A DNA stretch of 64,000 nucleotides from Patescibacteria group bacterium. GTDB taxonomy: Bacteria; Patescibacteriota; Minisyncoccia; Phycocordibacterales; Phycocordibacteraceae. This document shows, one piece after another, positions 17,917 through 47,018 of this stretch; the first letter of the stretch is position 1, and the number at the start of each line of letters is the position of its first letter. The stretch spans positions 158,657 through 222,656 of the forward strand of contig JAUPKX010000007.1 of the NCBI GenBank assembly GCA_030837225.1, read 5' to 3'. A program made the position numbers and the translations under genes. The notes beneath the pieces were generated by a model that did not search any database, was not told the DNA's origin, and saw nothing but the letters and a program-made list of their open reading frames with translations.

Positions 17917-17920
17917 GATG

Positions 17921-22447: not shown

Positions 22448-22521
22448 ACGAAAAGAGTAGCACGCAGGTTCGCACAATATTCTCAAGGTCTCCTTAACGT
22501 AATACGCTATACTTTCTCTAT

Positions 22522-25911: not shown

Positions 25912-25940
25912 GGTAGGGGTTTCGTGGTACAGTAGCGGCC

Positions 25941-26294: not shown

Positions 26295-26296
26295 CT

Positions 26297-26956: not shown

Positions 26957-26972
26957 GGACACTGTAAAGAGA

Positions 26973-27003
26973 AAAGCCCCGGACCAGTCCGGGGCTTTTC
27001 TCC
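26973..27003 (+). terminator. intrinsic terminator (AAAAGCCCCGGACCAGTCCGGGGCTTTTCTCC)
   Basis: Near-identical to terminator at 27765-27795. Confidence 0.6.
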
Positions 27004-29101: not shown

Positions 29102-32100
29102 ATGCAGCACCTCGAAGGCCTTAACGACGCGCAACGGGAAGCCGTCCTAGCCACCGAGGGTCCGGTCTCAGTCCTCGCGGGTGCCGGATCGGGCAAAACA
29201 CGGGTTCTAACCACCCGCATCTACCATCTTATAAAGGAAGGGGTGCCCGCTAACCGGATTCTCGCCGTTACCTTCACCAACAAGGCCGCCCGAGAGATGA
29301 GAGAGCGCCTCGCGCACAGACTCGGGGATAGTCCGCTCCCGTTTGTAGCTACGTTCCATGGCCTTGGCCGGGATATTCTCCAGCGATACGGCAGTCGCAT
29401 TGGTATCTCTCGTTATTTCACGATATTTGATCGCGATGACTCGAAATCCGCCATAAAGAGGGTATTGAAGGAGATGGATATCGACCCAAAGGAGATGAAT
29501 CCAAACTTTGTCCTTTCCCGCATCTCGAAAGAAAAGGGAGAAGGCTCCACTCCCGATGCTTTCCGTGAGAAGTACGCACAGAAGAGCTTCCAGTCCCGTG
29601 TTATCGCTGAAGTCTGGCCCAAGTACGAAGCAATACTCAAGAAGGAGAAGGCGCTCGACTTCGACGATCTTATTTGTCTTCCGGTGCGCTTGCTTCGCGA
29701 GCACGAGGACATCCGTAGGGAAGCGGAGCAGCTCTACAGCCACGTACACGTGGACGAGTTCCAAGACACCAACGAACTGCAGGGCAAGCTCGTCGACATG
29801 CTCACACAACCACAGAACAATGTGTTCGTGGTAGGGGATATTGACCAGTGTCTTCTTGCCGGAACAGAAGTGCGCATGGCAGATGGTTCGAAAAAATCTA
29901 TCGAACTAATTCAAGAAGGGGATTCTGTTCTGTCTAATTTTGGAAGTGGGGATATGCGGGCCGCAAGCGTTATAAGAGCCATGAAGCGAGAGTTCTCTGG
30001 AGACTTGGTTCACATCATCACTATGTCTGGACGCACCCTTACAAGCACGCCGGAGCATATTCACTTTGCCGGATACCGACTAGGTGTCGTACCCCAGAAA
30101 TACTTTACCTACCTGATGTACAAAAAGGGGAAAGGGTGGCGTCTTGGCGTCTCGCAGACCTATACCAACGGCCAGCGCGCGCCCATGATCGGATTTCAGC
30201 AGCGATGCAACCAAGAGCACGGGGACAGTGTGTGGATTGTTGGCGTATTTGACTCGGCACAGGAAGCACGCGTGCACGAGTACAAACTCTCGTTAACGTA
30301 TGGCATTCCAACGCTCCCTTTCGTAGCGCGAAAGGGAAGCGTAGGCGGGTATATCCATGACCAGGAAACGCTTGATGCGGTATTCGCATCATTCGATACT
30401 GATGCCGCCGCAAGAAAACTCTTATCAGACCGTGGACTCTCTCTTTCCTATCCCCATCATCGTGCTCAAGCAACGCGCAGCAACAGAAGGAATATTCTTA
30501 TCACACTATGTGGGGACCACAGGGGTAGCACACCCATGCATCGCATATCGATTGTTGGGAGCGATGATATAGGAAAAGAGGCACTGGTAGCGGCAGGATT
30601 TTCAGTACGTTCAGCAGGGTTAGGTTCGATGAGTTGGAGATTTGAGACCGCCCATGCCGATTACGGCAAGGCGAGAGAAATCTCTGATCGACTCCTCATA
30701 ATATTTCCAGATGCTCAGGTCGTAGAAACCGCGCGTCTCGGAGGAAAGAAAACAAACCCTAAGGATTCGAACTCATTGCCATTTCTTCCCGCTGCCTCGG
30801 TGCTGCCAGGTATGGCCATGTTCGACGACGAAGCTGGATGGGATATCGTCGAGTCTGTAGAACGTGTTCCTGGGAACAAGATACCCGTCTATGACTTAAA
30901 CATTGAAGGGACACATAACTTCATTGCAAACGGTCTTTCAACACACAATTGTATCTACACCTGGCGAGGCGCTACAATCGAGAACCTGCTCAAGTTCGAA
31001 GAGCAGTACGAGAACGCAAAGACCATCGTGCTCGCGCATAACTATCGTTCAACAAAAACAATTGTTGCTGCAGGAAACCAGATAATCGAGAAGAATCAGA
31101 ACCGCAAGGATAAGCATGCAGTAACCGACAACGCGGATGGGGAACCGATACGCTTACACATTGCGCGCAACGCAGAAAGCGAAGCTCGATGGGTGGCGCG
31201 TGAAGCGAGGAAAGCTATACGGGAAGGCGTTTTACCTGAAGAAGTTGCCGTACTGTTCCGTACGAACTTCCAGTCTCGTGCTCTTGAGGAAGCGTTCCTC
31301 TCAGAAGGCCTCCCATACAAGGTGCTCGGTACGCGCTTCCTTGATCGCAAAGAAGTGAAGGACGTACTCGCATGGGTCAGACTTGCACTTGATCCAGAAC
31401 GCGAAGTGGACCGCATCCGCGCCGTACAGGCACCAACGCGCGGAATAGGGAAAGTGACCCTCGGCAAGCTTATCGACGGAAAGAGGGACACTTTGAAGCC
31501 TGCAGAAGTGAAGAAGGTAGCGGCATTCGAAGCTATCGTTATGGAACTGAACGAACTCGCAAAGATTGCGGTGCCGAGCGAATTCGTAAAGCTCGTCATT
31601 GAGCGCTCAGGATTAGCCGAAGCGCTGCGTAAGGGCGGGGAAGAGGACGCCGAGCGCCTTGAGAACGCGAAGGAGCTCGCAACCTTAGCCAGCCGCTATG
31701 ACGGCATGCCAGGAGAGGAGGGAATTGCAGCATTTCTGGCGGAGTCCGCCTTAGCTGGCGACCAAGACGAGCTCGACGCACCAGGCACTGCCGGCATTAC
31801 CCTTATGACCGTACACGCAGCCAAGGGACTTGAGTTCGATACCGTATTTGTTACCGGCATGGAGCAGGGATTGTTCCCGCACGAAGCGAGAGAGGGGGAG
31901 AAGCGGGACGAGGAAGAGGAGCGCCGCTTGTTCTATGTAGCGGTTACGCGCGCAAAGCGCAGGCTTAATCTCACGCTCGCAACCGTTCGTCGCATCTATG
32001 GCACCGACTTCGCCTCGGAACCTTCCATGTTCATCCGCGACATAGACGAGGGGCTTATCAGTTTCTCAGAAGGGGACGAGCTCTATGGAGAGCGTACGAT

Positions 32101-32110
32101 ATACATCTAG
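29102..32110 (+). CDS. uvrD: UvrD/PcrA-family DNA helicase interrupted by an intein in motif III
   Basis: Walker A AGSGKTRVLT, DEFQDT, then VVGDIDQ | intein | CIYTWRGA, downstream helicase motifs IV-VI. Confidence 0.9.
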   Translation: MQHLEGLNDAQREAVLATEGPVSVLAGAGSGKTRVLTTRIYHLIKEGVPANRILAVTFTNKAAREMRERLAHRLGDSPLPFVATFHGLGRDILQRYGSRIGISRYFTIFDRDDSKSAIKRVLKEMDIDPKEMNPNFVLSRISKEKGEGSTPDAFREKYAQKSFQSRVIAEVWPKYEAILKKEKALDFDDLICLPVRLLREHEDIRREAEQLYSHVHVDEFQDTNELQGKLVDMLTQPQNNVFVVGDIDQCLLAGTEVRMADGSKKSIELIQEGDSVLSNFGSGDMRAASVIRAMKREFSGDLVHIITMSGRTLTSTPEHIHFAGYRLGVVPQKYFTYLMYKKGKGWRLGVSQTYTNGQRAPMIGFQQRCNQEHGDSVWIVGVFDSAQEARVHEYKLSLTYGIPTLPFVARKGSVGGYIHDQETLDAVFASFDTDAAARKLLSDRGLSLSYPHHRAQATRSNRRNILITLCGDHRGSTPMHRISIVGSDDIGKEALVAAGFSVRSAGLGSMSWRFETAHADYGKAREISDRLLIIFPDAQVVETARLGGKKTNPKDSNSLPFLPAASVLPGMAMFDDEAGWDIVESVERVPGNKIPVYDLNIEGTHNFIANGLSTHNCIYTWRGATIENLLKFEEQYENAKTIVLAHNYRSTKTIVAAGNQIIEKNQNRKDKHAVTDNADGEPIRLHIARNAESEARWVAREARKAIREGVLPEEVAVLFRTNFQSRALEEAFLSEGLPYKVLGTRFLDRKEVKDVLAWVRLALDPEREVDRIRAVQAPTRGIGKVTLGKLIDGKRDTLKPAEVKKVAAFEAIVMELNELAKIAVPSEFVKLVIERSGLAEALRKGGEEDAERLENAKELATLASRYDGMPGEEGIAAFLAESALAGDQDELDAPGTAGITLMTVHAAKGLEFDTVFVTGMEQGLFPHEAREGEKRDEEEERRLFYVAVTRAKRRLNLTLATVRRIYGTDFASEPSMFIRDIDEGLISFSEGDELYGERTIYI
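29849..30949 (+). mobile_element. intein (367 aa) within uvrD
   Basis: Starts Cys (CLLAGTEVRMADG), block B GRTLTSTPEH, C-terminal VYDLNIEGTHNFIANGLSTHN followed by +1 Cys; flanking extein halves re-form helicase motif III. Confidence 0.8.
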
Positions 32111-32977: not shown

Positions 32978-33994
32978 ATGGCTCATTCTACCCGCACCCT
33001 CCGCATCGCAGGCGCATCTTTACTCGCTGTTTTCATGGTCGGCGGCACATATCTTTCGACAGGACCTAATCCCTTCTTTGGCATGACGCGCATCGCAGGC
33101 GCGCAGTCCTCAGAAGAACTTCTTCGTGAGTATGCCGCTAAGGATAGCGACGCTGACGGACTTCCTGATTGGCAGGAATCCTTGTATGGGACCGATCCCT
33201 TGAATCCTGAATCCTTCCAGGCAGGGATTAAGGACGGGGAAGCGGTTGCTCAGGGTCTTATCGAGCCGAAGGTTGTTGTTCGTCCGGAAGAGGAACCGAT
33301 TGACCCGAATAGTATCCCGGGTATCGATGCGGTTCCTGATTCGCTCACCGATCGATTCTCTCAGACTCTCCTAAAGCAGTATCTGCTTAATAAGGGGACC
33401 GAACCACCCACACAAGAGGAAATACTCGCGTTCGTGCAGCAGGGTGTCGCGGAACTCTCCGCGACCTTTGTGCCGAAAGATGCCTACAGTTCTGCACAGG
33501 TGCGCTCTTCCGGTACTTCCGGGGAAGCTGCTCTGCGTGCGTATGCGGCACAAGTAGATGCTGCATTTGAAACACATACCGTGTCCTCAGAGAAGAACGA
33601 GCTCTTCTATTTCGAGGATGCTATGAAGGGCAGCACGAGTGCTCTTAAGAAGATTGCTGATATCAGCGAGGCATACACCAATATCGCTGACGCGCTTATG
33701 GACATCCCGGTACCACAAGAAGCACAGCGTGCTCACCTTTCGATCGTGAACGCGCTCATGCAGATGAGTGATGTGACCGAGCACATGGCTTCAATGGAGA
33801 GCGATCCACTTCGAGCGCTCATGGGTATCGGACTGTATCAGCAGTCTGCTGACCGGGTTGTTACCGCCCTTACCGGCATGCACGGAATCTTTACTGCTCT
33901 ACAGGTAACGATACCGGCTGGGACGGACGGATATGAACTGGTTCAGATGGCGAACTATGCCGCGCAGGTTTCTGCTAAGAACTCAGCACAATAG
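32978..33994 (+). CDS. membrane-anchored hypothetical protein, first gene of T4SS-like operon
   Basis: N-terminal TM LRIAGASLLAVFMVGGTYL; no recognised domain. Confidence 0.45.
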   Translation: MAHSTRTLRIAGASLLAVFMVGGTYLSTGPNPFFGMTRIAGAQSSEELLREYAAKDSDADGLPDWQESLYGTDPLNPESFQAGIKDGEAVAQGLIEPKVVVRPEEEPIDPNSIPGIDAVPDSLTDRFSQTLLKQYLLNKGTEPPTQEEILAFVQQGVAELSATFVPKDAYSSAQVRSSGTSGEAALRAYAAQVDAAFETHTVSSEKNELFYFEDAMKGSTSALKKIADISEAYTNIADALMDIPVPQEAQRAHLSIVNALMQMSDVTEHMASMESDPLRALMGIGLYQQSADRVVTALTGMHGIFTALQVTIPAGTDGYELVQMANYAAQVSAKNSAQ

Positions 33995-33995
33995 T

Positions 33996-35477
33996 ATGTC
34001 TTTCTTCTCAAACTCTCGCTCCATACTTGCAGGACTCGCGTTTCTCCTCATGCTCAGCGTAGCGACGCCAGCTCATGCGCAGGTTCCAATTCCAGCACCA
34101 CAACCTGTTGTAGACGTTTTGGGTGTTCCTGTTCAAAAACTGAATCTGATAGAGAGTATCGTAAGTGCCGCGAATAGCGCGGCTGATCACACGCTCGAGT
34201 ATGTTTTGAACGGGCTCGCGTGGGATGTCGCGAACCTCGCCATTGAGTCCATGACGAAGAGTATCGTTAACTGGATTAACTCGGGCTTCGAAGGCTCTCC
34301 TGCCTTCGTTACGGATCTCGAATACAACTTGCGCGGCTTAAGCGATGCGGTCGCCGACCGTTTCTTTGATGAGCTTGCGGTATCTACGCAAGCCATTTTT
34401 GAGGCTAATGGCCAGGACAGAGTGCTCGACGCTGTCCGGCTCGCATATTACCTGCGCACGAGCCCTGAATCCTTCTATGTACGGTACCCAAATACTCTTG
34501 GCCAGGTAAGTTCAGACCATCGCGCATTTCTTGATGGGGATTTTAGCCAGGGAGGCTGGAACGCCTGGATTTCAGCCAGCCTTAACCTGACCAACAATCC
34601 GTATGGTCAGCGAGCACTTCTTGAGGACGAGCTTTCAGGACTCCTCGCAAGCGCAACAGGCAACCGTCTTCAGGAATTGTCGTGGGGAAGCGGTTTCCGC
34701 TCACTACGTGCGTGTGACACCGAAGGTACGGGACCCGCAATTGCCTCCTCTACGGAAATCAGCCTGAGCGGTGTCGAGCCGTGTGCTTTTGGAGAGATGC
34801 GTACACCTGGCTCGGTGATCCAGCGCCAGTTGAACGATGCTCTTGGTTCCGGTAGGGATCGGCTCATCGTTGCGGATGATTTTAACGAGATCGTCGGTGC
34901 TCTTCTAAACCAGCTCGTCGGCCATGTACTTGGTGCAAACAATTCTGGAGGTTTGAGTGGAGTTTCTCGCCCATCAGCTGGTGGCGGTGCTTCGTTCCTC
35001 GACCGGTCAACAGATCCTTCGCAGAATACGGGAAGTGGTGTTCGTACTGCTGCTTCCTTCACCGCAACAATCGAGGATCAGCGTCGTATCGTTAAAACAT
35101 ATCAAGCGAACTGGGAGAAGATACGCGGCGCAGCGGATACCGCAGCAGCAAAGTGCCCGAACAACTCTGACGCGGAGAACGTAGTGACCAGAGCACAAGC
35201 GGCACTAATAAAGGCGGCGGATGCGTTAGCGAAGTTCGATGACCTCCTTTCGCGCATTGCAGCAGCGAATGCTGCGGGAGGGAATCAGAGTACCGCAATA
35301 TCAGGAATTGCGAACGATTTCACTATTCTTAGCCGTTCAGTAATTGTTCCAACTGGAGAGGAGATAGCAGAAGCCAAGATAGAGTCGCAGGATACTGGAG
35401 ACCTCGAGCCAGGCTCGCTCTACAGCCAGATGGTGCGTGCTGCGAAAGCTACCTCATGCCAGGCGAGTGGGGAGTAA
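33996..35477 (+). CDS. secreted hypothetical protein (T4SS-like operon)
   Basis: Signal peptide MSFFSNSRSILAGLAFLLMLSVATPAHAQ; track start 33933 overlaps previous gene. Confidence 0.45.
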   Translation: MSFFSNSRSILAGLAFLLMLSVATPAHAQVPIPAPQPVVDVLGVPVQKLNLIESIVSAANSAADHTLEYVLNGLAWDVANLAIESMTKSIVNWINSGFEGSPAFVTDLEYNLRGLSDAVADRFFDELAVSTQAIFEANGQDRVLDAVRLAYYLRTSPESFYVRYPNTLGQVSSDHRAFLDGDFSQGGWNAWISASLNLTNNPYGQRALLEDELSGLLASATGNRLQELSWGSGFRSLRACDTEGTGPAIASSTEISLSGVEPCAFGEMRTPGSVIQRQLNDALGSGRDRLIVADDFNEIVGALLNQLVGHVLGANNSGGLSGVSRPSAGGGASFLDRSTDPSQNTGSGVRTAASFTATIEDQRRIVKTYQANWEKIRGAADTAAAKCPNNSDAENVVTRAQAALIKAADALAKFDDLLSRIAAANAAGGNQSTAISGIANDFTILSRSVIVPTGEEIAEAKIESQDTGDLEPGSLYSQMVRAAKATSCQASGE

Positions 35478-35527
35478 TTCCTATGATACGGACCTTACTT
35501 GAGAGGATTCGTAGGGGAGGATTGTCT

Positions 35528-37645
35528 ATGAAGCTACCGGTATCTGCATTTCTCGCAGGGTTTCTACTCGTAACACCACTGACTGCACAGGCAGCGGGTG
35601 CTGCTGATGTTCTTTCATGGGTTGGTAGGCAGGTGGGTGGGGCATTTGTCGACATCTTGTCTTTAATGGTTGTGCCGATAGCGTTTGTGTTCCTTTCGAT
35701 TTCAAATTTCGTACTTTGGGTCTCTGGACTCGTATTCAACTGGGCAGTTATCCGGACCGTATTCCAGTTTGGAACCTACTTTGGCACCTCTGATGAGATG
35801 TTAACCGCTTGGGGCGTCATGCGGGATGTCGCCAACATCGGCCTTTTGTTCGGTTTCATATTCATGGGAGTGCTTCTCATCCTGAACGTTGAGGGGGGAG
35901 GGCATGGACACGGGGGAGGCATCAGTGCCAAGAAGGCTATCCCGAGGCTTCTTATATTCGCCGTGCTTGTGAACTTCAGTTTGTTCACCACTCAGGCGGT
36001 TATTGATGTGTCTAACGGCCTTGCCTCGGTGTTTGCTGAGCAGGCAGGACAGAAGTGTGATCTTGTTGGTGATGCTGAGAAGTGCGCGAATCTAGGAATC
36101 GCGTCCGTTATATCTCAGCGTGCAGGCATAACGACTATTTTTGCAGGCGGCCCCAACCCACTTACTGATCCGCTAAAGACTGCTGTAGTGTATGTCGGTC
36201 TTTCAATATTCGTCATGATTACGGCGATGGTCCTTTTGGCTGGAGCCATCATGTTTATCTATCGTGCAGTGGTGCTCTCGTTCCTTATGGTTACGTCGCC
36301 CATAGGCTTTGCGGGTATGGCGATTCCTTCCCTTAAGAAAATCGCAGACGAGTGGTGGAGCAAACTAATCTCTCAGGCGTTCTTTGCTCCAGTGTATCTC
36401 CTTTTGATATTCATTAGCCTCAAGCTAACTGAGACGTTGGCTAAGGTCTCAGTGGAGGGTGGGGGTAAGGGCAGTCTTGCGAGTGCGCTCGCTGGAACCG
36501 GAGGAGAGCCGGGCACCGAGGCAGGGAATATACAGATTGTGCTCGTGTTTATGGTTGTTATTGGGTTCATGATGGCGTCCCTTGTGACAGCAAATAAGAT
36601 GGGGGCTGTGGGAGCGAAGTTTGCAACTAAGACTGCCGGCGCTCTTACGATTGGCACCGCTGGGTTCGTTGGTCGCAGGACGCTTGGAAGGGCTTCGACC
36701 AGAATTGCCAACAATATTAGGCGTTCGCCCCTTGGCGAAACCGAGGCTGGGCGCCGCCTGGCTGGGATTGCAGATTATGGTTCTAAGGCGAGTTATAGCT
36801 TGAGGAATGTGGGTAACAAGGCGTTGAGTGGTGCGGGAGCAGGAATAGATATTGGAACGGCAAATAAGACTGCCGGACATGGATACCACGGCATTGAAGA
36901 GAAGGCAGTGAAGGAACGCGTTGACTATGCCAAGAGTCTTAAGGGCCCAAGAGGAGAATCGGATCAAGAGATGGAGTACCGTCTTGCGCACCAGGAGGCG
37001 AGCCTTATTAACGCAAACAGTAATTACGACGCTGCGGAAACCTCACTGTCTACATCGCAAGCAGCGCGTAACTCACAGCAAATGGTTCGAGATAACGTCG
37101 CGTTCTCTGTTGCCGAACAAGAGAGAATTATCGCCAGCAATCCAGCTGATACAGATGCATACAGGGTGCTCGCTGAACTTAAGTTGCAGCTTGCAAAAGA
37201 AGAACAGGCGCTTACTCAATCAGACCGAGACCTTAAGAAGGCGAATGATACCTTGGCAAAAGCTACAACTGACCGCGCTAACGCAATGAAGGCTGCAGAA
37301 AACACTGATCGAGGCTACGTGGAAGAGAAGGATCGTCAAAGAGGCTATGCCCGTAACCTAGACTCACGTGCGCTTATAGTAGGAGAAGACGGAAAGCCTG
37401 TTCGAGGACCCGCAGGACGTCCTCGCGGAGCCTTTGATTTAATCTCAGGAGATCATGCTTTCACACTTGCACACCACGCAGAACACGAAGCCTCCGGAGA
37501 CATAGTTAAGTATGCAGGTAAGGATGCAACGGAGCGTGCACTGGACACCCTTAAAAAACAGATGAGTAAGGCTGATAAGCCAGCAGATGCACCTGCACCA
37601 AGCACAAGTGGACCATCTACGGGCGGTGGCGGTCCTAGTCATTAG
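35528..37645 (+). CDS. VirB6/TrbL-like polytopic membrane protein with C-terminal coiled-coil extension
   Basis: GGAGGA RBS before MKLPVSAFLAGF signal; six or more TM helices with Gly-rich loops; long charged coiled-coil tail. Confidence 0.55.
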   Translation: MKLPVSAFLAGFLLVTPLTAQAAGAADVLSWVGRQVGGAFVDILSLMVVPIAFVFLSISNFVLWVSGLVFNWAVIRTVFQFGTYFGTSDEMLTAWGVMRDVANIGLLFGFIFMGVLLILNVEGGGHGHGGGISAKKAIPRLLIFAVLVNFSLFTTQAVIDVSNGLASVFAEQAGQKCDLVGDAEKCANLGIASVISQRAGITTIFAGGPNPLTDPLKTAVVYVGLSIFVMITAMVLLAGAIMFIYRAVVLSFLMVTSPIGFAGMAIPSLKKIADEWWSKLISQAFFAPVYLLLIFISLKLTETLAKVSVEGGGKGSLASALAGTGGEPGTEAGNIQIVLVFMVVIGFMMASLVTANKMGAVGAKFATKTAGALTIGTAGFVGRRTLGRASTRIANNIRRSPLGETEAGRRLAGIADYGSKASYSLRNVGNKALSGAGAGIDIGTANKTAGHGYHGIEEKAVKERVDYAKSLKGPRGESDQEMEYRLAHQEASLINANSNYDAAETSLSTSQAARNSQQMVRDNVAFSVAEQERIIASNPADTDAYRVLAELKLQLAKEEQALTQSDRDLKKANDTLAKATTDRANAMKAAENTDRGYVEEKDRQRGYARNLDSRALIVGEDGKPVRGPAGRPRGAFDLISGDHAFTLAHHAEHEASGDIVKYAGKDATERALDTLKKQMSKADKPADAPAPSTSGPSTGGGGPSH

Positions 37646-37662
37646 TCTGTAAAATTATTGAA

Positions 37663-38478
37663 ATGGATGCTCCAGAAATTTCTGACGAGAATGTTACCGA
37701 CGCCATGGGCGTCCTCATAGGAGGACTTCCAAAGCCGGTGCAAGAATTCTTGTTGAGCGACGAGAGAAACGCGGTGGCAAGCGAACTATCGAACAAGTAC
37801 GGTCTCCATGCAGATCAAGCAGGGAAGTTCGAAGAGGCATACCTGCACATGCTTCTAGGTATAGCAACACCTGAAGATTTTGTATCTTCCCTCAAGAAGG
37901 CTGGGGTGCAGCAAGAGGTAATAAACGGTCTTGCGGCCGATGTTAATACGCGCGTGTTCATGCGTCTGCGCGATGCTGAACGCCTAGGAACTCCAATAAC
38001 GGATACGCCGCCACCAACACCGAGTAAGCCCGCTCCTCTTCCTCCTCCCGCTCTCGACTATCAGCCAGCAGCAGTTCCAACTCTCCCCGGGTCTCCGGTG
38101 CCAGCACCTATGCCCCCTGCTCCAGCAGTAGTAGCACCCGTTCTTGCAGCTGCTGAACCGACACCAGTGCCGCAACCCCTAGCTCCTCAGCAGCATTTCG
38201 TTCACACGATGCCTAGTTCCCAGCAGCAACAGGGCTGGCACCCTGCCGCGGCGGTTCATATCTTCGTTCCGACGCATGGAGCACCTATGCAGATGAGCGC
38301 GCCAGCACCGCAAGCACCCGTTCAAGAAACTCCTGTTTACAATGCTGCTTATTCTGAGCCAGCTCCAACCGTTCCTGTGCAGCCTGTATATGTAAACCCG
38401 GAGCAAACACCAGTAGCTCCTGCTGCTGTAATTCATAAAGAGTACAGTGCCGATCCGTATCGCGAGCCCGTGCAGTAG
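37663..38478 (+). CDS. Pro-rich hypothetical protein (T4SS-like operon)
   Basis: PPPTPSKPAPLPPPALDYQPAAVP low-complexity region. Confidence 0.45.
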   Translation: MDAPEISDENVTDAMGVLIGGLPKPVQEFLLSDERNAVASELSNKYGLHADQAGKFEEAYLHMLLGIATPEDFVSSLKKAGVQQEVINGLAADVNTRVFMRLRDAERLGTPITDTPPPTPSKPAPLPPPALDYQPAAVPTLPGSPVPAPMPPAPAVVAPVLAAAEPTPVPQPLAPQQHFVHTMPSSQQQQGWHPAAAVHIFVPTHGAPMQMSAPAPQAPVQETPVYNAAYSEPAPTVPVQPVYVNPEQTPVAPAAVIHKEYSADPYREPVQ

Positions 38479-38521
38479 AAAAAAGGGAAGTGGTTTCAGG
38501 TATCAGGTATACTGATACGTA

Positions 38522-38929
38522 ATGGAGTACCAGATACCACAGTTCATCGAGGTTGAGGACAAGATATTCGGACCGTTCACGCTGAAGCAGTTTATCTATG
38601 TCGCTGGTGGGGTGGGACTTTGCGCCATTGTGCTCCTATATTTGCCACTTTGGCTTGGTGTAATCATCGGTCTGCCGGTAGGACTGCTAACCTTGGCGCT
38701 CGCGTTCTATAAGATAAACAATAAGCCGTTCGTTGAGATCATGGAGGCGGCATTTAACTACTACATCGGGGACCGACTATACCTTTGGAAGAAAGAGAAG
38801 AACCAGGTAGACGCTCCTGTTATCGTGAAGCCTGCGGATCCTGCAAAGCTCGGCCTCACGCAGAGCAAGCTCAAGGACTTGGCCTGGTCGCTCGACATCA
38901 AGGACCGCGAGAACAACAATCCTGCATAG
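38522..38929 (+). CDS. PrgI/VirB3-like small membrane protein
   Basis: QIPQFIEVEDKIFGPFTLKQFIYVAGG followed by two TM helices, the PrgI-family signature. Confidence 0.6.
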   Translation: MEYQIPQFIEVEDKIFGPFTLKQFIYVAGGVGLCAIVLLYLPLWLGVIIGLPVGLLTLALAFYKINNKPFVEIMEAAFNYYIGDRLYLWKKEKNQVDAPVIVKPADPAKLGLTQSKLKDLAWSLDIKDRENNNPA

Positions 38930-38932
38930 ATC

Positions 38933-39562
38933 ATGGCATCTACCAAGACTACCCAATCATTCGTACCTGTTAAGGAAGTAAGGAACGGCGTCATCGTCCT
39001 CAAGGGCGACGGGTACCGAGGTGTACTCATGTGTTCGTCGATTAACTTCGCTCTGAAAGGGGAGGATGAGCAGCGCGCCATCATCGGCGGATTCCAGAGC
39101 CTTTTAAATACGCTCGATTTCTCCATACAGATCGTTGTCCATTCACGTAAGACCGATATACGCCCTTATCTCGCACTACTTGAGACTCGCATGCAAGAGC
39201 AGACGAGCGAGCTTATGCGGTTGCAGCTTCGCGAGTACGTCGCCTTCATTCGGAACTTCATTGATTCGAGCGACATCATGACAAAAATGTTCTACATCGT
39301 AGTGCCGTACACGCCAGGAGCCGGAGGCATCGTTGCCAGTGCCGCACCGTTCCTTGGAGGAAAGAAGTCCGCAAACGACGGAGCGACAGATTCGTTCGAA
39401 GAGAATCGTGTGCAGCTCGAGCAGCGCATGTCGCTCGTGGTATCGGGCCTTGCCAGTAGCGGGGTACGCGCAGTGCCGCTTGGCACTGAGGAAATAATCG
39501 AGTTGTTGTACCGTTCATTCAACCTGAGCGAGCTCGAGAACCCTATCCATCTATCCGCGTAA
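38933..39562 (+). CDS. VirB4-like ATPase, N-terminal portion (separated from the ATPase body by one in-frame TAA)
   Basis: Same reading frame as 39566-41380; stop TAA at 39560-39562 then TCT ATG. Confidence 0.45.
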   Translation: MASTKTTQSFVPVKEVRNGVIVLKGDGYRGVLMCSSINFALKGEDEQRAIIGGFQSLLNTLDFSIQIVVHSRKTDIRPYLALLETRMQEQTSELMRLQLREYVAFIRNFIDSSDIMTKMFYIVVPYTPGAGGIVASAAPFLGGKKSANDGATDSFEENRVQLEQRMSLVVSGLASSGVRAVPLGTEEIIELLYRSFNLSELENPIHLSA

Positions 39563-39565
39563 TCT

Positions 39566-41380
39566 ATGGCACTACTCGACTTCCTCGGAAAGAATAAGAA
39601 GGATGAGGCTCCCGCAATGGCACCGGTACTTCCGAAGGACATCTACGCGGAAGGGGAACTTCAGCTCGCTGACGCTATCGCGCCTGCGGCGCTTAGGGTG
39701 GGTCCGCGCGAGCTCGAACTCGGTGAGAAGGTGTCTCGAACGTTCTATACCATCTCTTATCCACGCTTCCTTGTTGATAGCTGGTTCACGCCAATCATCA
39801 ATCTCGACAAGGTGTTCGATGTTGCTATATTCGTCCATCCTATTGAGACCGGTTCCGCACTTCGAGGATTCCAGAAGAAAGTGGCGGAAATCGAGAGCCA
39901 GATATCAGACAGGGAAGAGAAGGGTTTGGTGCGCGACCCGATGCTCGATACGGCGTACCGAGATCTCGAACAGCTCCGCGATCAGCTTCAGCAGGCTGAG
40001 GAGCACATCTTCGAGGTAGGGCTCTATATAACCCTCTATGGTGATTCGAAGGAGGATCTCGACAAGATTGAGGGTGATGTTCGTGGCATCTTGGACGCGA
40101 AACTCGTCTACACGAAGCCAGCACTCTTCCAGCAAGAGCAGGGGTTCCGTTCGACACTCCCTTTGGCAAACGACGAGCTTATGGTAACGAGCAAGTTGAA
40201 TTCGTCGCCTCTTTCCTCGATATTCCCATTCGTGTCCTTTGACCTTACGAGTGACCGCGGCATCCTGTACGGCATCAACCGCCACAACGCCTCCTTGATC
40301 CTCTTCGATCGCTTCTCGCTTGAGAACTACAACTCGGTAGTGTTCGCGAAGTCCGGTTCCGGTAAGTCCTATGCGGTGAAGCTCGAGATACTGCGAACGC
40401 TTATGTTCGGTGCAGACGTTATCGTTATCGACCCTGAACGCGAGTACGAGAATCTCGCTTCAGCGACCGGAGGCCGCACCTTTAATATCTCGCTCTCTTC
40501 GGAGCACCACATCAATCCGTTCGATCTTCCACCGGTTAAAGAAGACGAGGAGCCGTCCGACATTCTCAGGTCTAACATTATCAACCTGGTTGGTCTCTTC
40601 CGCATCATGCTCGGAGGACTTACACCCGAGGAAGACGCTATCGTCGATCGCGCTATCACTGAGACCTACGCCCTTAAAGACATTACTGGGGACGCTGACT
40701 TCACGGGCGTAGAGCCGCCGCTTCTTTCAGACTTCGAGAATGTGCTTTCGGGCATGGAGGGCTCAGAGTCGCTCGTTATACGCCTCTCGAAGTATACGCA
40801 CGGTACCTGGGCCGGGTTCATCAACCAGCCGACCAACATCGATATCAACAAGCAGTTCATCGTCTTCTCGGTGCGCGACATGGAGGATGAGCTGAAGCCG
40901 GTGGCGATGTATATCATTACGCACTTCATTTGGAACGCGGTCCGTCACGAGCTCCGCAAGCGTCTTCTCGTGATCGACGAGGCATGGTGGATGATGAAGT
41001 CGGAGGATACGGCATCGTTCCTCTATAGCGTCGCGAAACGCGGCCGCAAGTATTATCTCGGTGTTGCAACGATAACGCAGGACGTTGAGGACTTCTTGAA
41101 GAGCCCGTACGGTCGCCCAATTCTCACCAACTCCTCAATGCAGCTCCTGTTGAAGCAGTCGCCAACGACGATTAACGTACTCAAGGAAACATTCAACCTA
41201 ACCGATGAGGAGAAGTTCCTGCTGCTTGAGTCGGGAGTGGGGGAGGGGCTCTTCTTTGCAGGACTCAAGCATGTCGCCATTAAGGTCGTCGCATCGTATA
41301 CCGAGGACCAGATCATAACTTCAGATCCGTCACAGCTTCTGCAGATAAAGCAGGAGAAGATGCGCAATGAGGCCGCATAA
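39566..41380 (+). CDS. VirB4/TraE/CagE-family conjugative/type IV secretion ATPase
   Basis: Walker A FAKSGSGKSYAV, Walker B LLVIDEAWWMM, DUF87/AAA_10-like architecture. Confidence 0.85.
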   Translation: MALLDFLGKNKKDEAPAMAPVLPKDIYAEGELQLADAIAPAALRVGPRELELGEKVSRTFYTISYPRFLVDSWFTPIINLDKVFDVAIFVHPIETGSALRGFQKKVAEIESQISDREEKGLVRDPMLDTAYRDLEQLRDQLQQAEEHIFEVGLYITLYGDSKEDLDKIEGDVRGILDAKLVYTKPALFQQEQGFRSTLPLANDELMVTSKLNSSPLSSIFPFVSFDLTSDRGILYGINRHNASLILFDRFSLENYNSVVFAKSGSGKSYAVKLEILRTLMFGADVIVIDPEREYENLASATGGRTFNISLSSEHHINPFDLPPVKEDEEPSDILRSNIINLVGLFRIMLGGLTPEEDAIVDRAITETYALKDITGDADFTGVEPPLLSDFENVLSGMEGSESLVIRLSKYTHGTWAGFINQPTNIDINKQFIVFSVRDMEDELKPVAMYIITHFIWNAVRHELRKRLLVIDEAWWMMKSEDTASFLYSVAKRGRKYYLGVATITQDVEDFLKSPYGRPILTNSSMQLLLKQSPTTINVLKETFNLTDEEKFLLLESGVGEGLFFAGLKHVAIKVVASYTEDQIITSDPSQLLQIKQEKMRNEAA

Positions 41381-41391
41381 CGCACTCTGCC

Positions 41392-42165
41392 GTGGCCAAC
41401 GAACGGATTCAAGTGAGGCAAGGGCAAGGCACCGATGATTCTTTAAATAAGGTCGCGGAGCTGTTTGCTTCGCGGGGTGAGAAGTTTGATGAAGAGGATG
41501 CGCAGATGCTCCAAGAGAAGCTGCCGACCGATCCTGGGTTTCCGTTCATGATTACGGCGTTGGTGGTTATTAAAGACCTTCTCGATTTAGTTCTCGATGC
41601 AACCGTTATTCTCGCTATTGTTGCCTGGGTCCTGTCGGCCATAATCGGCATTATCCTGGTGTTCTGGACGTTCGGAAAGATTAGCGGAGGCTGGTGGAAG
41701 AAGGGCGCCATACAGTGGCTTTGGAAGCGATTCTTCTTGATGATTAGTGTCGAGCTAATTCCGTTCCTTAACATAATGCCTACGAACGTCATTTACGTAC
41801 TCATGGTGCATTACCGAGAGAAGAAGATTGTGAAGCTTTTTAACGAAGCGCTCGAGATATTCCATGGCGGGGGTGGGGGCAAGCCAGGGGTATCGGGACG
41901 ACAGGCATTTCTGCGAGGACTCGCAAACAGGGCGGAGGAAGACGAAGAAGAAAATACCGTATCTAAAGCGGGCAGGACCATTACCCGACTTACACAATCA
42001 CCCGCAGGGAAGATGGTTAGAACCGCAACTAAGTTTGATCCGACTAAAAGAACTGCGGTAGGCACAGCACGATTCTCGAGTATGAACGCCACCAGGCAGA
42101 AGCAACTCAGTCGAAAAACGTCCCAAGGGCCGCAAGGGTCCGAAGCACTACGCGAAGCAGCGTAA
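41392..42165 (+). CDS. membrane protein, hypothetical (T4SS-like operon)
   Basis: Three TM helices then Gly-rich and basic disordered tail. Confidence 0.45.
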   Translation: MANERIQVRQGQGTDDSLNKVAELFASRGEKFDEEDAQMLQEKLPTDPGFPFMITALVVIKDLLDLVLDATVILAIVAWVLSAIIGIILVFWTFGKISGGWWKKGAIQWLWKRFFLMISVELIPFLNIMPTNVIYVLMVHYREKKIVKLFNEALEIFHGGGGGKPGVSGRQAFLRGLANRAEEDEEENTVSKAGRTITRLTQSPAGKMVRTATKFDPTKRTAVGTARFSSMNATRQKQLSRKTSQGPQGSEALREAA

Positions 42166-42219
42166 CCTTACCCACGCCGCAAGCAGGGGACTGTCTCTAC
42201 TTCGGTATATACTGAGCAC

Positions 42220-43197
42220 ATGATCCGCGCCGTGCTTCTTTTTCTCCTCATTTCAAGCGCTGCCTCCGCGAGCGCTCAAACGCTTCCGGGTACTGATCCG
42301 CTCACCCTTTCCGTGTCTCCGTTGTACCCCCGCCCGTACCAAACGGTCTCCATCGCTCCTCGAAGCACGCTTCTTGATCTCTCGGCAAGCACCGTGAGGG
42401 TGACGGTGGATGGGGATGTTGTGTATGAGGGAAGCGGAACACAAGCAACCACCGTACGTTCTGGAGCCTTTGGTGAGCGCACTACCATTGTTGTTACGGT
42501 CACCGATCCTTTTGGAAAGACTTACACAAGGACCCAGATACTGCGGCCAGCGGAAGTCTCTCTGGTGCTTGAGCCGGTATCAACTACCCATCCTTTCTAT
42601 CAAGGAGGGAGTCTTGTGTCTTCAGAAGGGAAGGTTCGGTTGGTTGCGCTCGCAGATTTCCGATCGGGACCAGGAACCCGGCTTCCTCCGTCGTCCTTGG
42701 TATATACCTGGCGTCTTGGAAACCGGATCCTAGCCGACTCGTCTGGAATCGGACGCTCAACCCTGACCGCGACTGCACCCGTGCGCCACCGAAATGCTGA
42801 TGTTAGCGTTACGGTGACGAGTCCGGATAGTTCTCTGGTGGGCGAGGCCCGGACCCTTATATCTGCCATCGACCCCGTGGCGCGTATTTATCGCAATGAC
42901 CCGCTCCTTGGTCCGAACTTCGACGTGGCGCTTTCGGGTAATTTCTCTATGCCTGATACAGAGGCAACCTTCAGGGCGGTTGGCTACTTCTTCGCTGTGC
43001 CACCCACGTTCGCGTGGACGGTAAACAAAGCAACGAACGGAACCGACAAAGACATCACCGTTCGTGCAACTGGAAATGGTCAGGGTACCGCACGCTTAGG
43101 GGTAACGGTACTTGAGTCTGGGACACGCACTTCGGCAGAAAACAATGTGGCGGTGACGTTCGGCTCTTCCACAGGCTTTGGGTTCTTCGGTCTATAA
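42220..43197 (+). CDS. secreted beta-rich protein, hypothetical
   Basis: Signal peptide MIRAVLLFLLISSAASASAQT; Thr/Val/Ser-rich repeats. Confidence 0.5.
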   Translation: MIRAVLLFLLISSAASASAQTLPGTDPLTLSVSPLYPRPYQTVSIAPRSTLLDLSASTVRVTVDGDVVYEGSGTQATTVRSGAFGERTTIVVTVTDPFGKTYTRTQILRPAEVSLVLEPVSTTHPFYQGGSLVSSEGKVRLVALADFRSGPGTRLPPSSLVYTWRLGNRILADSSGIGRSTLTATAPVRHRNADVSVTVTSPDSSLVGEARTLISAIDPVARIYRNDPLLGPNFDVALSGNFSMPDTEATFRAVGYFFAVPPTFAWTVNKATNGTDKDITVRATGNGQGTARLGVTVLESGTRTSAENNVAVTFGSSTGFGFFGL

Positions 43198-43203
43198 CCA
43201 CTT

Positions 43204-44445
43204 ATGAAATACCTTCCTTTTCTTTCTCTTCTTCTCCTCGGTCTTCCGTTGGTTGTGTTCGGTCAGCAGGACCCGGGCTTCGTTCCCCTAACAACCGGTG
43301 TTCCGTTTCTCGAGAACGTTGGAAACGCCGATTCATTGTCCGCCTTCCTGAACGATATCTATAAGGTTTGTATTGGTGTGGCCGCAACACTTGCGGTGCT
43401 GCAGATTATGCGCGCGGGCATTATGTATATGGGAGGGGACAGCGTAACCGAGAAGAAGGAGGCGAAGAATCTTATCGCAATGTCTATCGGAGGACTTATT
43501 CTCGTGCTTTCACCGGTTGTGGTGTTCTCAATCATTAACCCTGAAATACTTAATCTTGAGATTAAAGGGTTGAAAGACCTTGCAAGCGATGTTGAGGGTT
43601 GGGGACTGTCTGAAGAAGCTCGAGAAAACACGCTCGATGTAAATACCACTGACACTCGACCTGTAGCCAAAGCTGCTTGTATCGCTCGCGGTGGTACTCC
43701 GGTCTTCACCTGCACCCCGAGAGCTGGTGGAAGTGGGCGCACTGTTCCCGAAAGTGAACTTTGTAATGCGGCAACTGAACTCAGTGCGACAGTTTGTACT
43801 AGGAATGAAACTACTGCAACAAGCGAGAGCTGTACTGGATACACTGGTATCAAGGACGCAGATGGTGGCCTTTGTACTACTGAGGGGTACACCCGCATTG
43901 GTGATTCATGCTGCGCCAGTGGCGTGTGTTGTGGTTCGAGGAGCGGGGCTGTTGATGACCCTGCACGAACCAGCTTCTTCTCTATTTTTAGAGGAATTGA
44001 GGAGGAAGCAAACCGCTATGTCGCTGCATGTGATGCGTTAAGGCCATCTGCTGGCACTCAAGACATCGTAATGAGGAGGCACGGAACTAAAGTACAGGTA
44101 CCAAGAGCGATTGATACGGAGACGAGACAGAATCTCTTCTACGGCATCTGTGAATCCTACAGTTTGCCTTTCATTAAGTATGCGGTGGTAACTCGAGGTG
44201 TCAGTGAAGCAAAAGGTTTCGCTCCAGGTGAGGAAGATAAATATAATCGGTACTTTCAGGGCTGTCGTAATAATCCAGGCGGAACCTTTCAGGATGAATG
44301 GTCAGGCACCAGAAGAGAGGGTGGGCCGATTACCTGTCCCGCAGACATAAAGACCAGGATAGAGGCTTCTTTGGGGCCGCCGCCTACTGAGGGCACTCGA
44401 ACCATTAGCTGCACCCAGGTAACGTTCCGTTGTATCAAACCTTAG
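43204..44445 (+). CDS. secreted protein with pilin-like double hydrophobic segment (VirB2/TrbC-like topology) fused to Cys-rich domain
   Basis: Signal peptide, then VCIGVAATLAVLQIMRAG...IAMSIGGLILVLSPVVVFSII; C-terminal domain with over 20 Cys. Confidence 0.45.
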   Translation: MKYLPFLSLLLLGLPLVVFGQQDPGFVPLTTGVPFLENVGNADSLSAFLNDIYKVCIGVAATLAVLQIMRAGIMYMGGDSVTEKKEAKNLIAMSIGGLILVLSPVVVFSIINPEILNLEIKGLKDLASDVEGWGLSEEARENTLDVNTTDTRPVAKAACIARGGTPVFTCTPRAGGSGRTVPESELCNAATELSATVCTRNETTATSESCTGYTGIKDADGGLCTTEGYTRIGDSCCASGVCCGSRSGAVDDPARTSFFSIFRGIEEEANRYVAACDALRPSAGTQDIVMRRHGTKVQVPRAIDTETRQNLFYGICESYSLPFIKYAVVTRGVSEAKGFAPGEEDKYNRYFQGCRNNPGGTFQDEWSGTRREGGPITCPADIKTRIEASLGPPPTEGTRTISCTQVTFRCIKP

Positions 44446-44448
44446 ACC

Positions 44449-45666
44449 ATGCGCCGCACTCTCATCATCGTCGCCAGTATTGTGGTCGTCCTCGGCCTCC
44501 TTGTGGGCGCGTACTTCCTCTTCTTCAACAACCCAACCCTTTCGGTCGGCGTTCCTAGTAATCCCTTCGGTTCAAGCGGAGACCGCGTAGAAACCGAACT
44601 ACTTGGTCCTGACGGACAGCCTATCCAGGGAGCAGGGACGGTAGTGGCGCCGAGACTCATCCGCATTAGTGACGCACCGGTCGCAAAGGGGGCTGTAGCG
44701 CTCTATATTCCCCCTGTGCCATCGGTAGCTTCCTCAACGGAGCCCGGCATCCCCGCTGACACCGAGGTGCGCTTCATCGAACGCCAGAGCGGCAACGTCT
44801 ACGCGTTCAGAGTGCATGATCGGGTATTAACCCGCATTTCAAATCGAACACTTCCGGGCATTCAAGAGGCAGTGTGGACCACGGACGGCGCACGCGCGTT
44901 CGTTCGGTACCTTACTCGTGCCGCCGACGGTACAGAACATGTTGATACTTATATGCTTCCTGCAGACGGCGGGGAGGGGTACTTCCTTGAGCAGGATCTC
45001 GAGCAGGTGGCGATACGTGCGACCAGCACGGTGTTCTCGCTCCTTCCGAGCATGTCTGGATCCATAGGAACATTGTCGGCACCTGATGGCACGAACGTGC
45101 GTACGCTTTTCACCTCGGTGCTCTCGCGACTGCGTGCAGGATTCTCTGGCGCAGACATCATTGCCACCACTAAGGCCTCGAGCGGGCTTGATGGGTATTC
45201 GTTCCTTGTAAGCGGCTCTGACGGGTCATTCACGCGCATTCTAGGGCCACTCCGCGGTCTTGCAACCCTTCCGAACCGGGAGGGGAGTGCGGTTCTCTAC
45301 ACATACGTAGACGCGAACCGCACCTATCTTCAGGTGCTCGATCTCGCATCAAGGAACGCAACGTCGCTTCCGCTCGTTACCCTCGCAGAGAAGTGTGTGT
45401 GGGAGCCGGGGGGAAGGGCTGTGTACTGCGGGGTACCGACGGCACTTGCAGGTAATGTGCCCGACGAATGGTATCAAGGAGTAAAAACATTCTCAGATCG
45501 CATCTGGCGCATTGATCTCGATACCCGACTCGCGACACTTGTTGTTGATCCAGGACAAGTAGCAAGTGTTGCGATTGACGCGGTTGCGCTCGCGATTGAT
45601 TCGGAAAGTGACACGCTCGTCTTTACGAATAAGAAAGACGGTACGCTCTGGGTATACGACCTCTAA
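44449..45666 (+). CDS. membrane-anchored beta-propeller-like (TolB-like) protein, hypothetical
   Basis: N-terminal TM IIVASIVVVLGLLVGAYFLFF; repeated beta-strand-rich segments. Confidence 0.45.
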   Translation: MRRTLIIVASIVVVLGLLVGAYFLFFNNPTLSVGVPSNPFGSSGDRVETELLGPDGQPIQGAGTVVAPRLIRISDAPVAKGAVALYIPPVPSVASSTEPGIPADTEVRFIERQSGNVYAFRVHDRVLTRISNRTLPGIQEAVWTTDGARAFVRYLTRAADGTEHVDTYMLPADGGEGYFLEQDLEQVAIRATSTVFSLLPSMSGSIGTLSAPDGTNVRTLFTSVLSRLRAGFSGADIIATTKASSGLDGYSFLVSGSDGSFTRILGPLRGLATLPNREGSAVLYTYVDANRTYLQVLDLASRNATSLPLVTLAEKCVWEPGGRAVYCGVPTALAGNVPDEWYQGVKTFSDRIWRIDLDTRLATLVVDPGQVASVAIDAVALAIDSESDTLVFTNKKDGTLWVYDL

Positions 45667-47009: not shown

Positions 47010-47018
47010 TTATCCACA
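47010..47018 (+). promoter_or_regulatory. perfect DnaA box TTATCCACA just upstream of dnaA
   Basis: Exact consensus 9-mer, 3 nt before dnaA ATG. Confidence 0.6.

Follow-up and report, generated by a model that had tools for sequence, protein, structure and literature searches.

We analyzed a 64,000-nucleotide stretch of a Patescibacteria group bacterium genome (contig JAUPKX010000007.1 of assembly GCA_030837225.1; hereafter, the window) and found that 11 consecutive plus-strand open reading frames (ORFs), filling positions 32978 to 45666, encode a type IV secretion system (T4SS) that almost certainly belongs to the Patescibacteria clade and derives from monoderm (MPF_FATA) conjugation machinery. 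Overall, we favor the reading, at a probability of about 0.8, that this is a vertically inherited chromosomal T4SS of that clade, working as a host-contact apparatus rather than as a conjugation machine. Systems of this kind have already been described in papers of 2023 to 2025, and the locus is a correct rediscovery; what the present analysis adds is a hypervariable Cys-rich pilin head, six conserved accessory proteins, and a two-module layout. Patescibacteria are thought to account for at least a quarter of bacterial diversity and lack pathways for their own building blocks, and their T4SS is the first one shown to be essential for the growth of its owner (in one Saccharibacterium). The class Paceibacteria, to which the locus points, has almost no cultured members.

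Gene content of the cluster

The initial annotation, made from the nucleotide sequence alone, had proposed an 11-gene plus-strand operon here, and the ORF list bears this out, with the same gene order recurring in relatives (see below). The genes, numbered in order of transcription, are as follows.

g1, 32978 to 33994, plus strand, 338 amino acids (aa): accessory envelope protein with a Ca-binding motif
g2, 33996 to 35477, plus strand, 493 aa: candidate extracellular subunit (the ORF opens at 33933, and the signal peptide begins at the ATG at 33996)
g3, 35456 to 37645, plus strand, 729 aa: extended VirB6/TrbL-like protein, assigned through orthologues
g4, 37663 to 38478, plus strand, 271 aa: Pro-rich accessory protein
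g5, 38522 to 38929, plus strand, 135 aa: PrgI/VirB3-like protein
g6, 38933 to 39562, plus strand, 209 aa: TrsD-like protein
g7, 39566 to 41380, plus strand, 604 aa: VirB4-type ATPase
g8, 41392 to 42165, plus strand, 257 aa, GTG start: accessory membrane protein
g9, 42220 to 43197, plus strand, 325 aa: accessory protein with Ig-like domains
g10, 43204 to 44445, plus strand, 413 aa: very probably a VirB2-like pilin core fused to a Cys-rich region
g11, 44449 to 45666, plus strand, 405 aa: membrane-anchored accessory protein

The genes are tightly packed, as had been claimed (intergenic gaps from g1 to g11 of 1, −22, 17, 43, 3, 3, 11, 54, 6, and 3 nt), but instead of several overlapping stop and start codons there is a single true overlap, at the g2/g3 junction. 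The protein types named in the initial annotation hold up, except that its list totaled 10 and passed over the 11th, g6. Topology calls were made with a crude hydropathy scan, which agrees with the signal peptide and transmembrane (TM) features proposed at the outset: signal- or anchor-like N termini were detected in g2, g9, g10, and g11, and g3 and g8 showed more than one TM-like segment each, while the N-terminal hydrophobic anchor or signal of g1 is visible in the sequence by eye but falls under the threshold of the scan. GC content is even throughout the region (0.51 to 0.55), and no tRNA or Rfam element was detected inside the cluster. A promoter and terminator scan was uninformative, with fewer promoter-like sites than in shuffled sequence.

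For comparison with other genomes, a genome scan with g7 yielded 573 confirmed relatives, the best 80 of which, at species level, were kept; synteny counts are limited to the fetched 10 kb on either side of each locus.

VirB3 and VirB4 core

The PrgI/VirB3 and VirB4 assignments were both confirmed by hidden Markov model (HMM) searches scoring above curated cut-offs. The g5 protein matches Pfam PrgI (PF12666) at 35.6 bits against a cut-off of 27 (E value, 1.4e-8) and has a hydrophobic stretch at about residues 25 to 65 that is long enough for a TM hairpin. Its gene is the first of the downstream module (module B; see below), lies two genes upstream of virB4, and directly precedes g6 in 76 of the 80 loci. 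The g7 protein belongs to the CD1110 family of VirB4 ATPases in NCBIfam (368 bits against a cut-off of 325) and scores 87.5 bits with Pfam P-loop_TraG. It covers the C-terminal two thirds of VirB4, with the P-loop (AKSGSGKS) and Walker B motif (LLVIDE, residue 467) both intact, and aligns with residues 244 to 772 of PrgJ of pCF10 at 26% identity (E value, 2e-38). Across the 80 species-level genomes, g7 identity is 74 to 97%.

The remaining N-terminal part of VirB4 corresponds to g6. This protein, in which no TM segment was found, matches positions 101 to 233 of the Mbov_0397-type VirB4 model (E value, 1e-8), positions 2 to 111 of the CD1110-type VirB4 model (E value, 3e-5), and the TrsD/TraD model (E value, 0.023) of NCBIfam, all with scores far under the cut-offs of these full-length models, and aligns weakly with residues 50 to 146 of PrgJ (BLASTP E value, 0.05). 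On these similarities g6 is assigned as a TrsD-like protein, i.e., the VirB4 N-terminal domain as a separate gene, and VirB4 is taken to be encoded here by two polypeptides, g6 and g7. TrsD is reported to outnumber every other T4SS partner of VirB4 in Patescibacteria (PMC12102498), and g6 corresponds to it. In the window, g6 and g7 share a reading frame, with TAA TCT (a stop and one codon) preceding the ATG of g7. A stop codon divides the two in all 80 loci; the frame differs in 52 of them, and TAA, TAG, and TGA are all used. Because the split is present in every locus with varying frame and stop codon, it is ancestral and real, and the alternatives of readthrough, a nonsense mutation, or a pseudogene were rejected on the same grounds.

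VirB6-like protein

The g3 protein is identified as an extended VirB6/TrbL transitively, through its orthologues, 9 of 45 of which match TrbL. Three of them, P0094, P0105, and P0073, score 32.4, 31.4, and 27.3 bits, respectively, on TrbL (PF04610; cut-off, 25.9), with matches spanning profile positions 11 to 213 of 215, and they are about 41 to 50% identical to g3. The VirB6/TrbL label of the initial annotation is thus upheld by orthologues that pass the cut-off, while the window protein by itself gives no match. A profile search against PDB sequences and a Foldseek search against the PDB either gave nothing or mainly picked up the coiled-coil tail, and neither hhalign against PrgH of pCF10 nor tblastn against plasmids found anything.

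The shape of g3 fits the term “extended VirB6” as used in PMC12857230. About seven to eight TM helices are combined with a long hydrophilic tail that includes a coiled-coil hairpin (residues ~503 to 615), and the AlphaFold2 model (mean predicted local distance difference test score, 78) gives a helical membrane bundle with a hairpin tail. Cys201 and Cys210, located in a loop that connects TM helices, are invariant in 73 orthologues and probably form an extracytoplasmic disulfide. The protein is identical to QG636_363, a protein from a metagenome-assembled genome (MAG) at NCBI.

Probable pilin with a variable Cys-rich head

The g10 protein, identical to the NCBI MAG protein QG636_370, very probably joins a VirB2-like T4SS pilin core to a C-terminal region rich in disulfides. 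A Sec signal peptide is followed by a highly conserved helix-loop-helix core (residues ~22 to 120) and a variable C-terminal region of 290 aa, and 16 Cys residues lie between residues 159 and 410. The AlphaFold2 model shows a two-helix hairpin (helices at 45 to 77 and 81 to 111) followed by beta-rich domains. Many close relatives have recorded matches to PF18895 or PF04956 and carry the NCBI name “pilin.” The description of g10 as a pilin-like protein with a Cys-rich domain therefore stands on the annotation of its relatives, the modeled hairpin, and the 16 cysteines, while the pilin models themselves score it just below their cut-offs. Structural matches of g10 were nonspecific, and hhalign against PrgF of pCF10 gave nothing.

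Core and head evolve very differently. Between genomes whose VirB4 proteins are more than 90% identical, mean identity is 67% in the pilin core and 20% in the head. The C-terminal extension of the g10 family ranges from 2 to 343 residues across related loci, with mostly even numbers of Cys residues. Fold searches returned no match to the head. An exhaustive search with the head of 1.84 billion cluster representatives gave 14 matches, all of which begin at about residue 116 to 180 of proteins of 265 to 418 aa, behind an N terminus of pilin size; on this evidence, the head is found only as a pilin fusion.

Accessory envelope proteins

Six proteins (g1, g2, g4, g8, g9, and g11) keep their positions across species and belong to no known family. 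The gene for g1 is the first of the upstream module (module A), its orthologues lying directly upstream of g2 in 31 loci. The g1 protein carries a thrombospondin-type-3 Ca-binding motif (residues ~56 to 77) and is otherwise mostly helical; the match to Pfam TSP3_bac is under the cut-off (E value, 5e-4), and in the PDB the family profile finds the Ca-binding motif of Bap only (7c7u; E value, 5.5e-5).

The g2 protein is a candidate extracellular T4SS subunit. Its features are a Sec signal peptide (...TPAHA|Q), a helical or coiled-coil C-terminal third, and the conserved motifs WINSGF.GSPAFVTDL, QGGW.AW, and TPGSVI, and its gene always directly precedes that for VirB6. Searches of Pfam, NCBIfam, and the PDB gave no match for the window protein, the family profile returns coiled-coil noise from the PDB, and all 354 relatives are named “hypothetical.” An N-terminal DUF4141 motif is present in 7 of the 120 g2 relatives listed (best score, 33.7 bits against a cut-off of 30); DUF4141 proteins of Bacteroides conjugative transposons are listed beside traJ and near traG.

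Located between VirB6 and PrgI in 32 loci, g4 encodes the protein that had been noted as Pro rich, and a conserved N-terminal domain of about 100 aa is indeed followed by a linker with 26% Pro over residues 111 to 271. The hydropathy scan found no signal peptide or TM segment in g4, and there was no match in Pfam, in NCBIfam, or, with the family profile, in the PDB. Its C-terminal motif (...K.Y..DPYRE) is invariant in 27 orthologues despite the highly variable linker, and because the motif is kept while the linker varies, the sequence suggests that this terminus may be a short docking peptide.

The g8 protein has about three TM helices within residues 50 to 138 and a basic C-terminal tail, without a match in Pfam or NCBIfam. 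It evolves fast but keeps its position; the positional ORFs of 62 of 66 loci could be linked, by iterated search (jackhmmer) alone. The g9 protein, present in 79 of 80 loci, has a signal peptide, Ig-like beta-sandwich domains, and a conserved C terminus (...FGL). Its family profile matches the Ig-like phage protein Hoc (3shs; E value, 4.6e-4), and orthologues match BiPBP_C (11 of 41), Cadherin-like (6 of 41), and PKD domains. Finally, 65 of 80 loci have g11, placed directly ahead of the convergent yidC gene. The g11 protein combines an N-terminal TM anchor with an extracytoplasmic domain in which Cys316 and Cys327 are invariant. The family profile gives weak matches to TolB in the PDB (E values, 0.04 to 0.13), and 1 of 37 orthologues matches PD40; the domain may, with low confidence, be a TolB-like beta-propeller.

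About 4 kb upstream of the cluster lies a gene for a 336-aa LysM and Peptidase_M23 protein (27807 to 28817, minus strand), which may stand in for a VirB1-type wall hydrolase. VirB1-like hits in Patescibacteria include M23 and LysM domains (PMC12102498).

Distribution, modules, and vertical inheritance

The records listed among the 573 VirB4 relatives are from Patescibacteria or unclassified MAGs, and the best 80 are MAGs labeled Patescibacteria, Paceibacteria, Parcubacteria, or Kaiserbacteria. By similarity ranking, g7 would be placed in the Patescibacteria VirB4 clade. The best plasmid VirB4 proteins are at most 36% identical to g7 (listed hosts, Bacillota and Actinomycetota; several belong to the CD1110 family), and no VirB4 homologue was found on viral contigs. 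A VirB4 of the CD1110 family whose nearest relatives all come from Patescibacteria/Paceibacteria MAGs agrees with the proposal that this is the stripped-down Gram-positive-type T4SS of an ultra-small episymbiont.

The cluster occupies a characteristic place in the chromosome. It is preceded by an intein-containing UvrD/PcrA helicase gene and then by ksgA, which lies 83 nt upstream of g1, and it is followed by yidC, rnpA, and rpmH on the minus strand, converging on g11. On the plus strand, dnaA (47021) and dnaN follow beyond rpmH, and positions 47010 to 47018 form a perfect DnaA box. The ksgA, dnaA, rnpA, and rpmH neighborhood, a pattern of Paceibacteria and Microgenomatia, is present here and in related loci, and the order uvrD-ksgA-[cluster]-yidC-rnpA-rpmH/dnaA is shared by dozens of Paceibacteria species. 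VirB4 identity correlates with the identities of DnaA, YidC, and KsgA (rho, 0.74 to 0.83; 0.83 for DnaA). The locus is a vertically inherited chromosomal cluster in a Paceibacteria (Kaiserbacteria-like) arrangement beside oriC.

The complete gene set is present in the same order in 33 of the 80 species-level relatives, and the conservation and synteny check that the initial annotation had suggested thus shows the order of the 11 genes to be conserved. In 6 of the 33 complete loci (L012, L058, L060, L064, L065, and L071), g10 and g11 are swapped. In at least 14 Kaiserbacteria-like loci for which the full 10 kb upstream is available (L016, L017, L020 to L022, L024, L025, L029, L030, L032, L034, L037, L038, and L056), only g5 to g11 stand beside yidC/dnaA, and g1 to g4, VirB6 included, are absent from the upstream 10 kb. 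Because these loci hold only g5 to g11, we regard the cluster as built of two modules, A (g1 to g4) and B (g5 to g11). In L020, upstream ORFs resemble tpiA, pgk, recJ, and rnhA as judged by reading translations without a family search, and two adjacent polytopic ORFs (5292 to 6814), ComEC-like by reading only, have module B about 2 kb downstream.

Conjugation, host contact, and alternative functions

The apparatus is very likely nonconjugative. Domain scanning of about 40 larger ORFs (roughly 120 aa and up) in the 64-kb window found no relaxase, no VirD4-type coupling protein (T4CP), and no VirB11, in agreement with the initial annotation, which had also held plasmid conjugation to be improbable; the outcomes that would have overturned its reading, namely, failed HMM searches for VirB3, VirB4, and VirB6 or an adjacent relaxase with a coupling protein, did not occur. 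Two T2SSE ATPases in the window were rejected as VirB11 candidates, since their MshEN domains and lengths of 560 to 622 aa make them PilB type. The cluster could also be viewed as an ordinary or decaying Gram-positive-type integrative and conjugative element (ICE) that had inserted close to the origin and whose relaxase and coupling protein were either lost or encoded outside the window, given that the CD1110 family of VirB4 is typical of ICEs and plasmids of Firmicutes and that a lone tyrosine recombinase gene (21539 to 22486) lies about 10 kb upstream. However, this recombinase has an XerC/D-type phage-integrase domain layout, and housekeeping-type genes (SPFH/Band 7 protein, glycosyltransferase, and UvrD) separate it from the cluster; the same ksgA-yidC/dnaA slot is occupied in dozens of species, with divergence that follows housekeeping genes; GC content is uniform, all genes are intact, and ATPase motifs are conserved; and few relaxases occur in the phylum (109 in 3,035 genomes; PMC12102498). 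A mobile-element origin was rejected also for want of any viral-contig relative, close plasmid relative, or RNA element in the cluster, and the ORFs scanned included no element-type integrase next to it. Because of the fixed synteny, the correlation of VirB4 with housekeeping proteins, the absence of close plasmid or viral relatives, and the lack of a relaxase or T4CP in the window, an ordinary ICE is ruled out, the ICE reading as a whole being extremely improbable.

From the observed gene set, homologies, and conservation, we infer a mechanism as follows. The g6-g7 VirB4 ATPase would dock at the cytoplasmic membrane on two partners, VirB3-like g5 and extended VirB6 g3, and form with them a platform that g8 probably joins. 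By analogy with VirB4 of diderms, it would extract Sec-inserted pilin g10 from the membrane and polymerize it, with both pilin termini presumably facing outward. This would give a surface fibre or channel whose every subunit shows a hypervariable disulfide-bonded head, with g1, g2, g9, and g11 as putative wall-spanning and distal parts, and the whole would be used for host-cell contact and exchange rather than for plasmid conjugation. That it assembles a pilus or contact fibre in particular is about an even bet. The disulfides and the extreme variability of the head fit a surface that meets changing host envelopes. A more specific proposal, which we consider doubtful, is that the Paceibacteria fibre is a pilin-adhesin fusion in which each VirB2-like subunit bears its own disulfide-knotted head as a host-range determinant, and that the lineage-specific g1, g2, g4, g8, g9, and g11 take the place of the VirB1, VirB8, and adhesin components found in Gram-positive conjugation machines. 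If true, the fibre would be the first T4SS pilus with decoration over its full length, and it would offer a testable handle on host recognition by uncultured Parcubacteria.

Several points weigh against the host-contact reading. The g3 protein of the window has no Pfam or NCBIfam match, TrbL/VirB6 included, and g10 scores under the pilin cut-offs (23.8 against 26.6 bits for T4SS_pilin and 22.8 against 27.9 bits for TrbC). A 290-aa head on every pilin subunit might clash sterically with the canonical VirB2 helical lattice. Sequence and profile searches of g1, g2, g4, g8, g9, and g11 recognized no VirB8-like (NTF2) or VirB1-like subunit in the cluster. We know of no experiments on any Paceibacteria T4SS, nor of any observation of a T4SS pilus on these cells. 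Lastly, 5,713 VirD4-like homologues are known from the phylum, mostly far from virB4 (PMC12102498), and one elsewhere in this genome would reopen the question of substrate transfer.

Stripped T4SSs that lack a T4CP (ComB, Ced, and Ptl) can import or export, and both directions have to be weighed against the assembly of a contact fibre. Export of effectors, in which the T4SS would inject or release proteins into or onto the host bacterium with the pilin and accessory proteins as the conduit, is the favored speculation for Saccharibacteria (PMC10633639; PMC11665869); protein-secreting T4SSs without a T4CP exist (Bordetella Ptl and Brucella VirB), and the Sec-dependent secreted proteins g2 and g9 could themselves be cargo. 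Yet the synteny and conservation of g2, g9, and g11 match those of the core subunits, as would be expected of structural components more than of cargo, and no effector-like, toxin, or coupling-protein genes were found in or near the cluster; we consider this function unlikely. Uptake of DNA, nucleotides, or other host molecules by a ComB- or Ced-like machine, an idea raised in PMC11665869 and PMC12857230, is quite improbable in our view. In its favor stand the combination of VirB4, VirB6, and pilin-like parts without a nearby relaxase or coupling protein, which ComB and Ced share, and the position of module B downstream of the ComEC-like ORFs of L020, a member of a sister subgroup; in the class ABY1, comF, recG, and radA colocalize with the cluster (PMC12102498). 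On the other side, g7 shows no specific homology to Ced proteins, scoring 33 bits with the CedB model (cut-off, 700) and 19 bits with the CedD model (cut-off, 600). Moreover, deletion of comEC in Southlakia ends competence but not viability, and that comEC is dispensable there whereas the T4SS is essential argues against simple DNA uptake via the classical route.

Other features of the window

The UvrD/PcrA-type helicase gene upstream of ksgA (29102 to 32110, plus strand; 1,002 aa) carries an inserted intein, recognized by Pfam Intein_splicing (44 bits) and Hint. Reading of the translation places the intein between ...VVGDIDQ and CIYTWRGA..., ending in ...THN|C, an insertion point that we take to be the conserved helicase motif III. 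Type IV pilus genes are also present, encoding PilB-type T2SSE ATPases with MshEN domains (4125 to 5993 and 57452 to 59134, both minus strand) and a PilC-type T2SSF protein (2587 to 3798, minus strand). These are separate from the T4SS, and the 64 kb therefore encodes parts of two fibre systems.

The cumulative GC-skew minimum lies at about 25000 to 27000, some 20 kb from dnaA and its DnaA boxes. With the origin at the skew minimum, the T4SS operon would be codirectional with replication; with the origin at dnaA, it would be head-on. The tRNA-Arg(tcg) gene (17920 to 17993, minus strand) overlaps the called GTG start of an ORF for a pyridoxal-phosphate-dependent decarboxylase of the Orn/DAP/Arg type (16735 to 17979, minus strand), so that the true start of the latter must be further downstream. 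A YebC/TACO1-like gene (53833 to 54393, minus strand; 186 aa) matches positions 2 to 55 of the 160-position model of the second and third domains and may be truncated. Three further ORFs have no Pfam match: 24316 to 25911 (plus strand, 531 aa), 10162 to 11166 (minus strand, 334 aa), and 8992 to 9807 (plus strand, 271 aa).

Comparison with known systems

ComB of Helicobacter pylori (DNA uptake), archaeal Ced (DNA import), and Bordetella Ptl (toxin export) resemble the window cluster in having a VirB4-type ATPase and VirB6-like and pilin-like parts without a relaxase. They differ from it in their diderm or archaeal envelopes and their own accessory sets and show no specific sequence relationship to it.

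The Prg/Pcf system of pCF10 and the CTn2 CD1110 subclass share with the window cluster the PrgI family, a CD1110-family VirB4, and a monoderm build without VirB7, VirB9, and VirB10. However, pCF10 has a relaxase, the coupling protein PcfC, the hydrolase PrgK, the VirB8-like PrgL, and the adhesin PrgB, none of which is found in or next to the cluster, and its VirB4 is a single polypeptide whereas that of the window is split. Monoderm conjugative T4SSs have been reported to lack VirB2-type pilins (PMC12102498), in contrast to the probable VirB2-like pilin g10.

The nearest systems are those of other Patescibacteria, and the claim of the initial annotation that the machine is effectively undescribed did not survive comparison with the homologous clusters already described (PMC10633639 and PMC12102498). 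In Southlakia epibionticum, the cluster SEML1_0006-0019 is essential for epibiotic growth (Wang et al. 2023, Cell, PMC10633639), as demonstrated by transposon sequencing in that organism only. Its T4SS is closest to Gram-positive conjugative T4SSs and includes essential pilins but no recognizable coupling or relaxase proteins (PMC10633639). The core order is the same as in the window (VirB6-like ... PrgI, TrsD-like, VirB4; SEML1_0013/0011, 0010, 0009, and 0008, according to the supplementary tables). The likeness extends to the PF18895 pilins of Southlakia, very probably matched by g10, to its place at the start of the chromosomal gene numbering (locus tags 0006 to 0019), and to the lack of a recognizable relaxase or coupling protein in the cluster. 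On the other hand, Southlakia, of the class Saccharimonadia, has six small pilins (103 to 185 aa) where the window has a single 413-aa pilin-head fusion, two VirB6-like proteins of about 1,000 aa together with an NTF2-like (VirB8-like) protein, and a peptidase and a lysozyme downstream of virB4.

Across the phylum, VirB4 was found in 2,417 of 3,035 Patescibacteria genomes (Quinonero-Coronel et al. 2025, PMC12102498). Most patescibacterial VirB4 proteins form one clade nested in MPF_FATA, with TrsD, PrgI, VirB6, and VirB2-like pilins near virB4 and hardly any relaxases, and dnaA, dnaN, rnpA, ksgA, and rpmH are its neighbors in Paceibacteria (PMC12102498). A 2025 FEMS review treats these T4SSs as a new superfamily branch and speculates on a pilus conduit (PMC12857230), while their role has elsewhere been called “completely unknown” (PMC11665869).

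The window cluster differs in nothing in kind from the T4SS of Quinonero-Coronel et al.: it shares the MPF_FATA VirB4, the separate TrsD, the PrgI-type VirB3, VirB6, very probably a VirB2-like pilin nearby, the lack of a nearby relaxase or coupling protein, and the location by dnaA, rnpA, rpmH, and ksgA. The neighboring “grey” genes were left unannotated in that study, whereas g1, g2, g4, g8, g9, and g11 are conserved members here, and pilins bearing large C-terminal domains, such as the Cys-rich head of g10, are not mentioned in it as far as a term search of the text shows. The split VirB4, the fast-evolving head, and the accessory set could guide structural modeling, cryo-electron tomography, and work on host specificity. 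Compared with these systems, the locus is no new kind of T4SS but a clean and complete Paceibacteria example with all 11 genes delimited.

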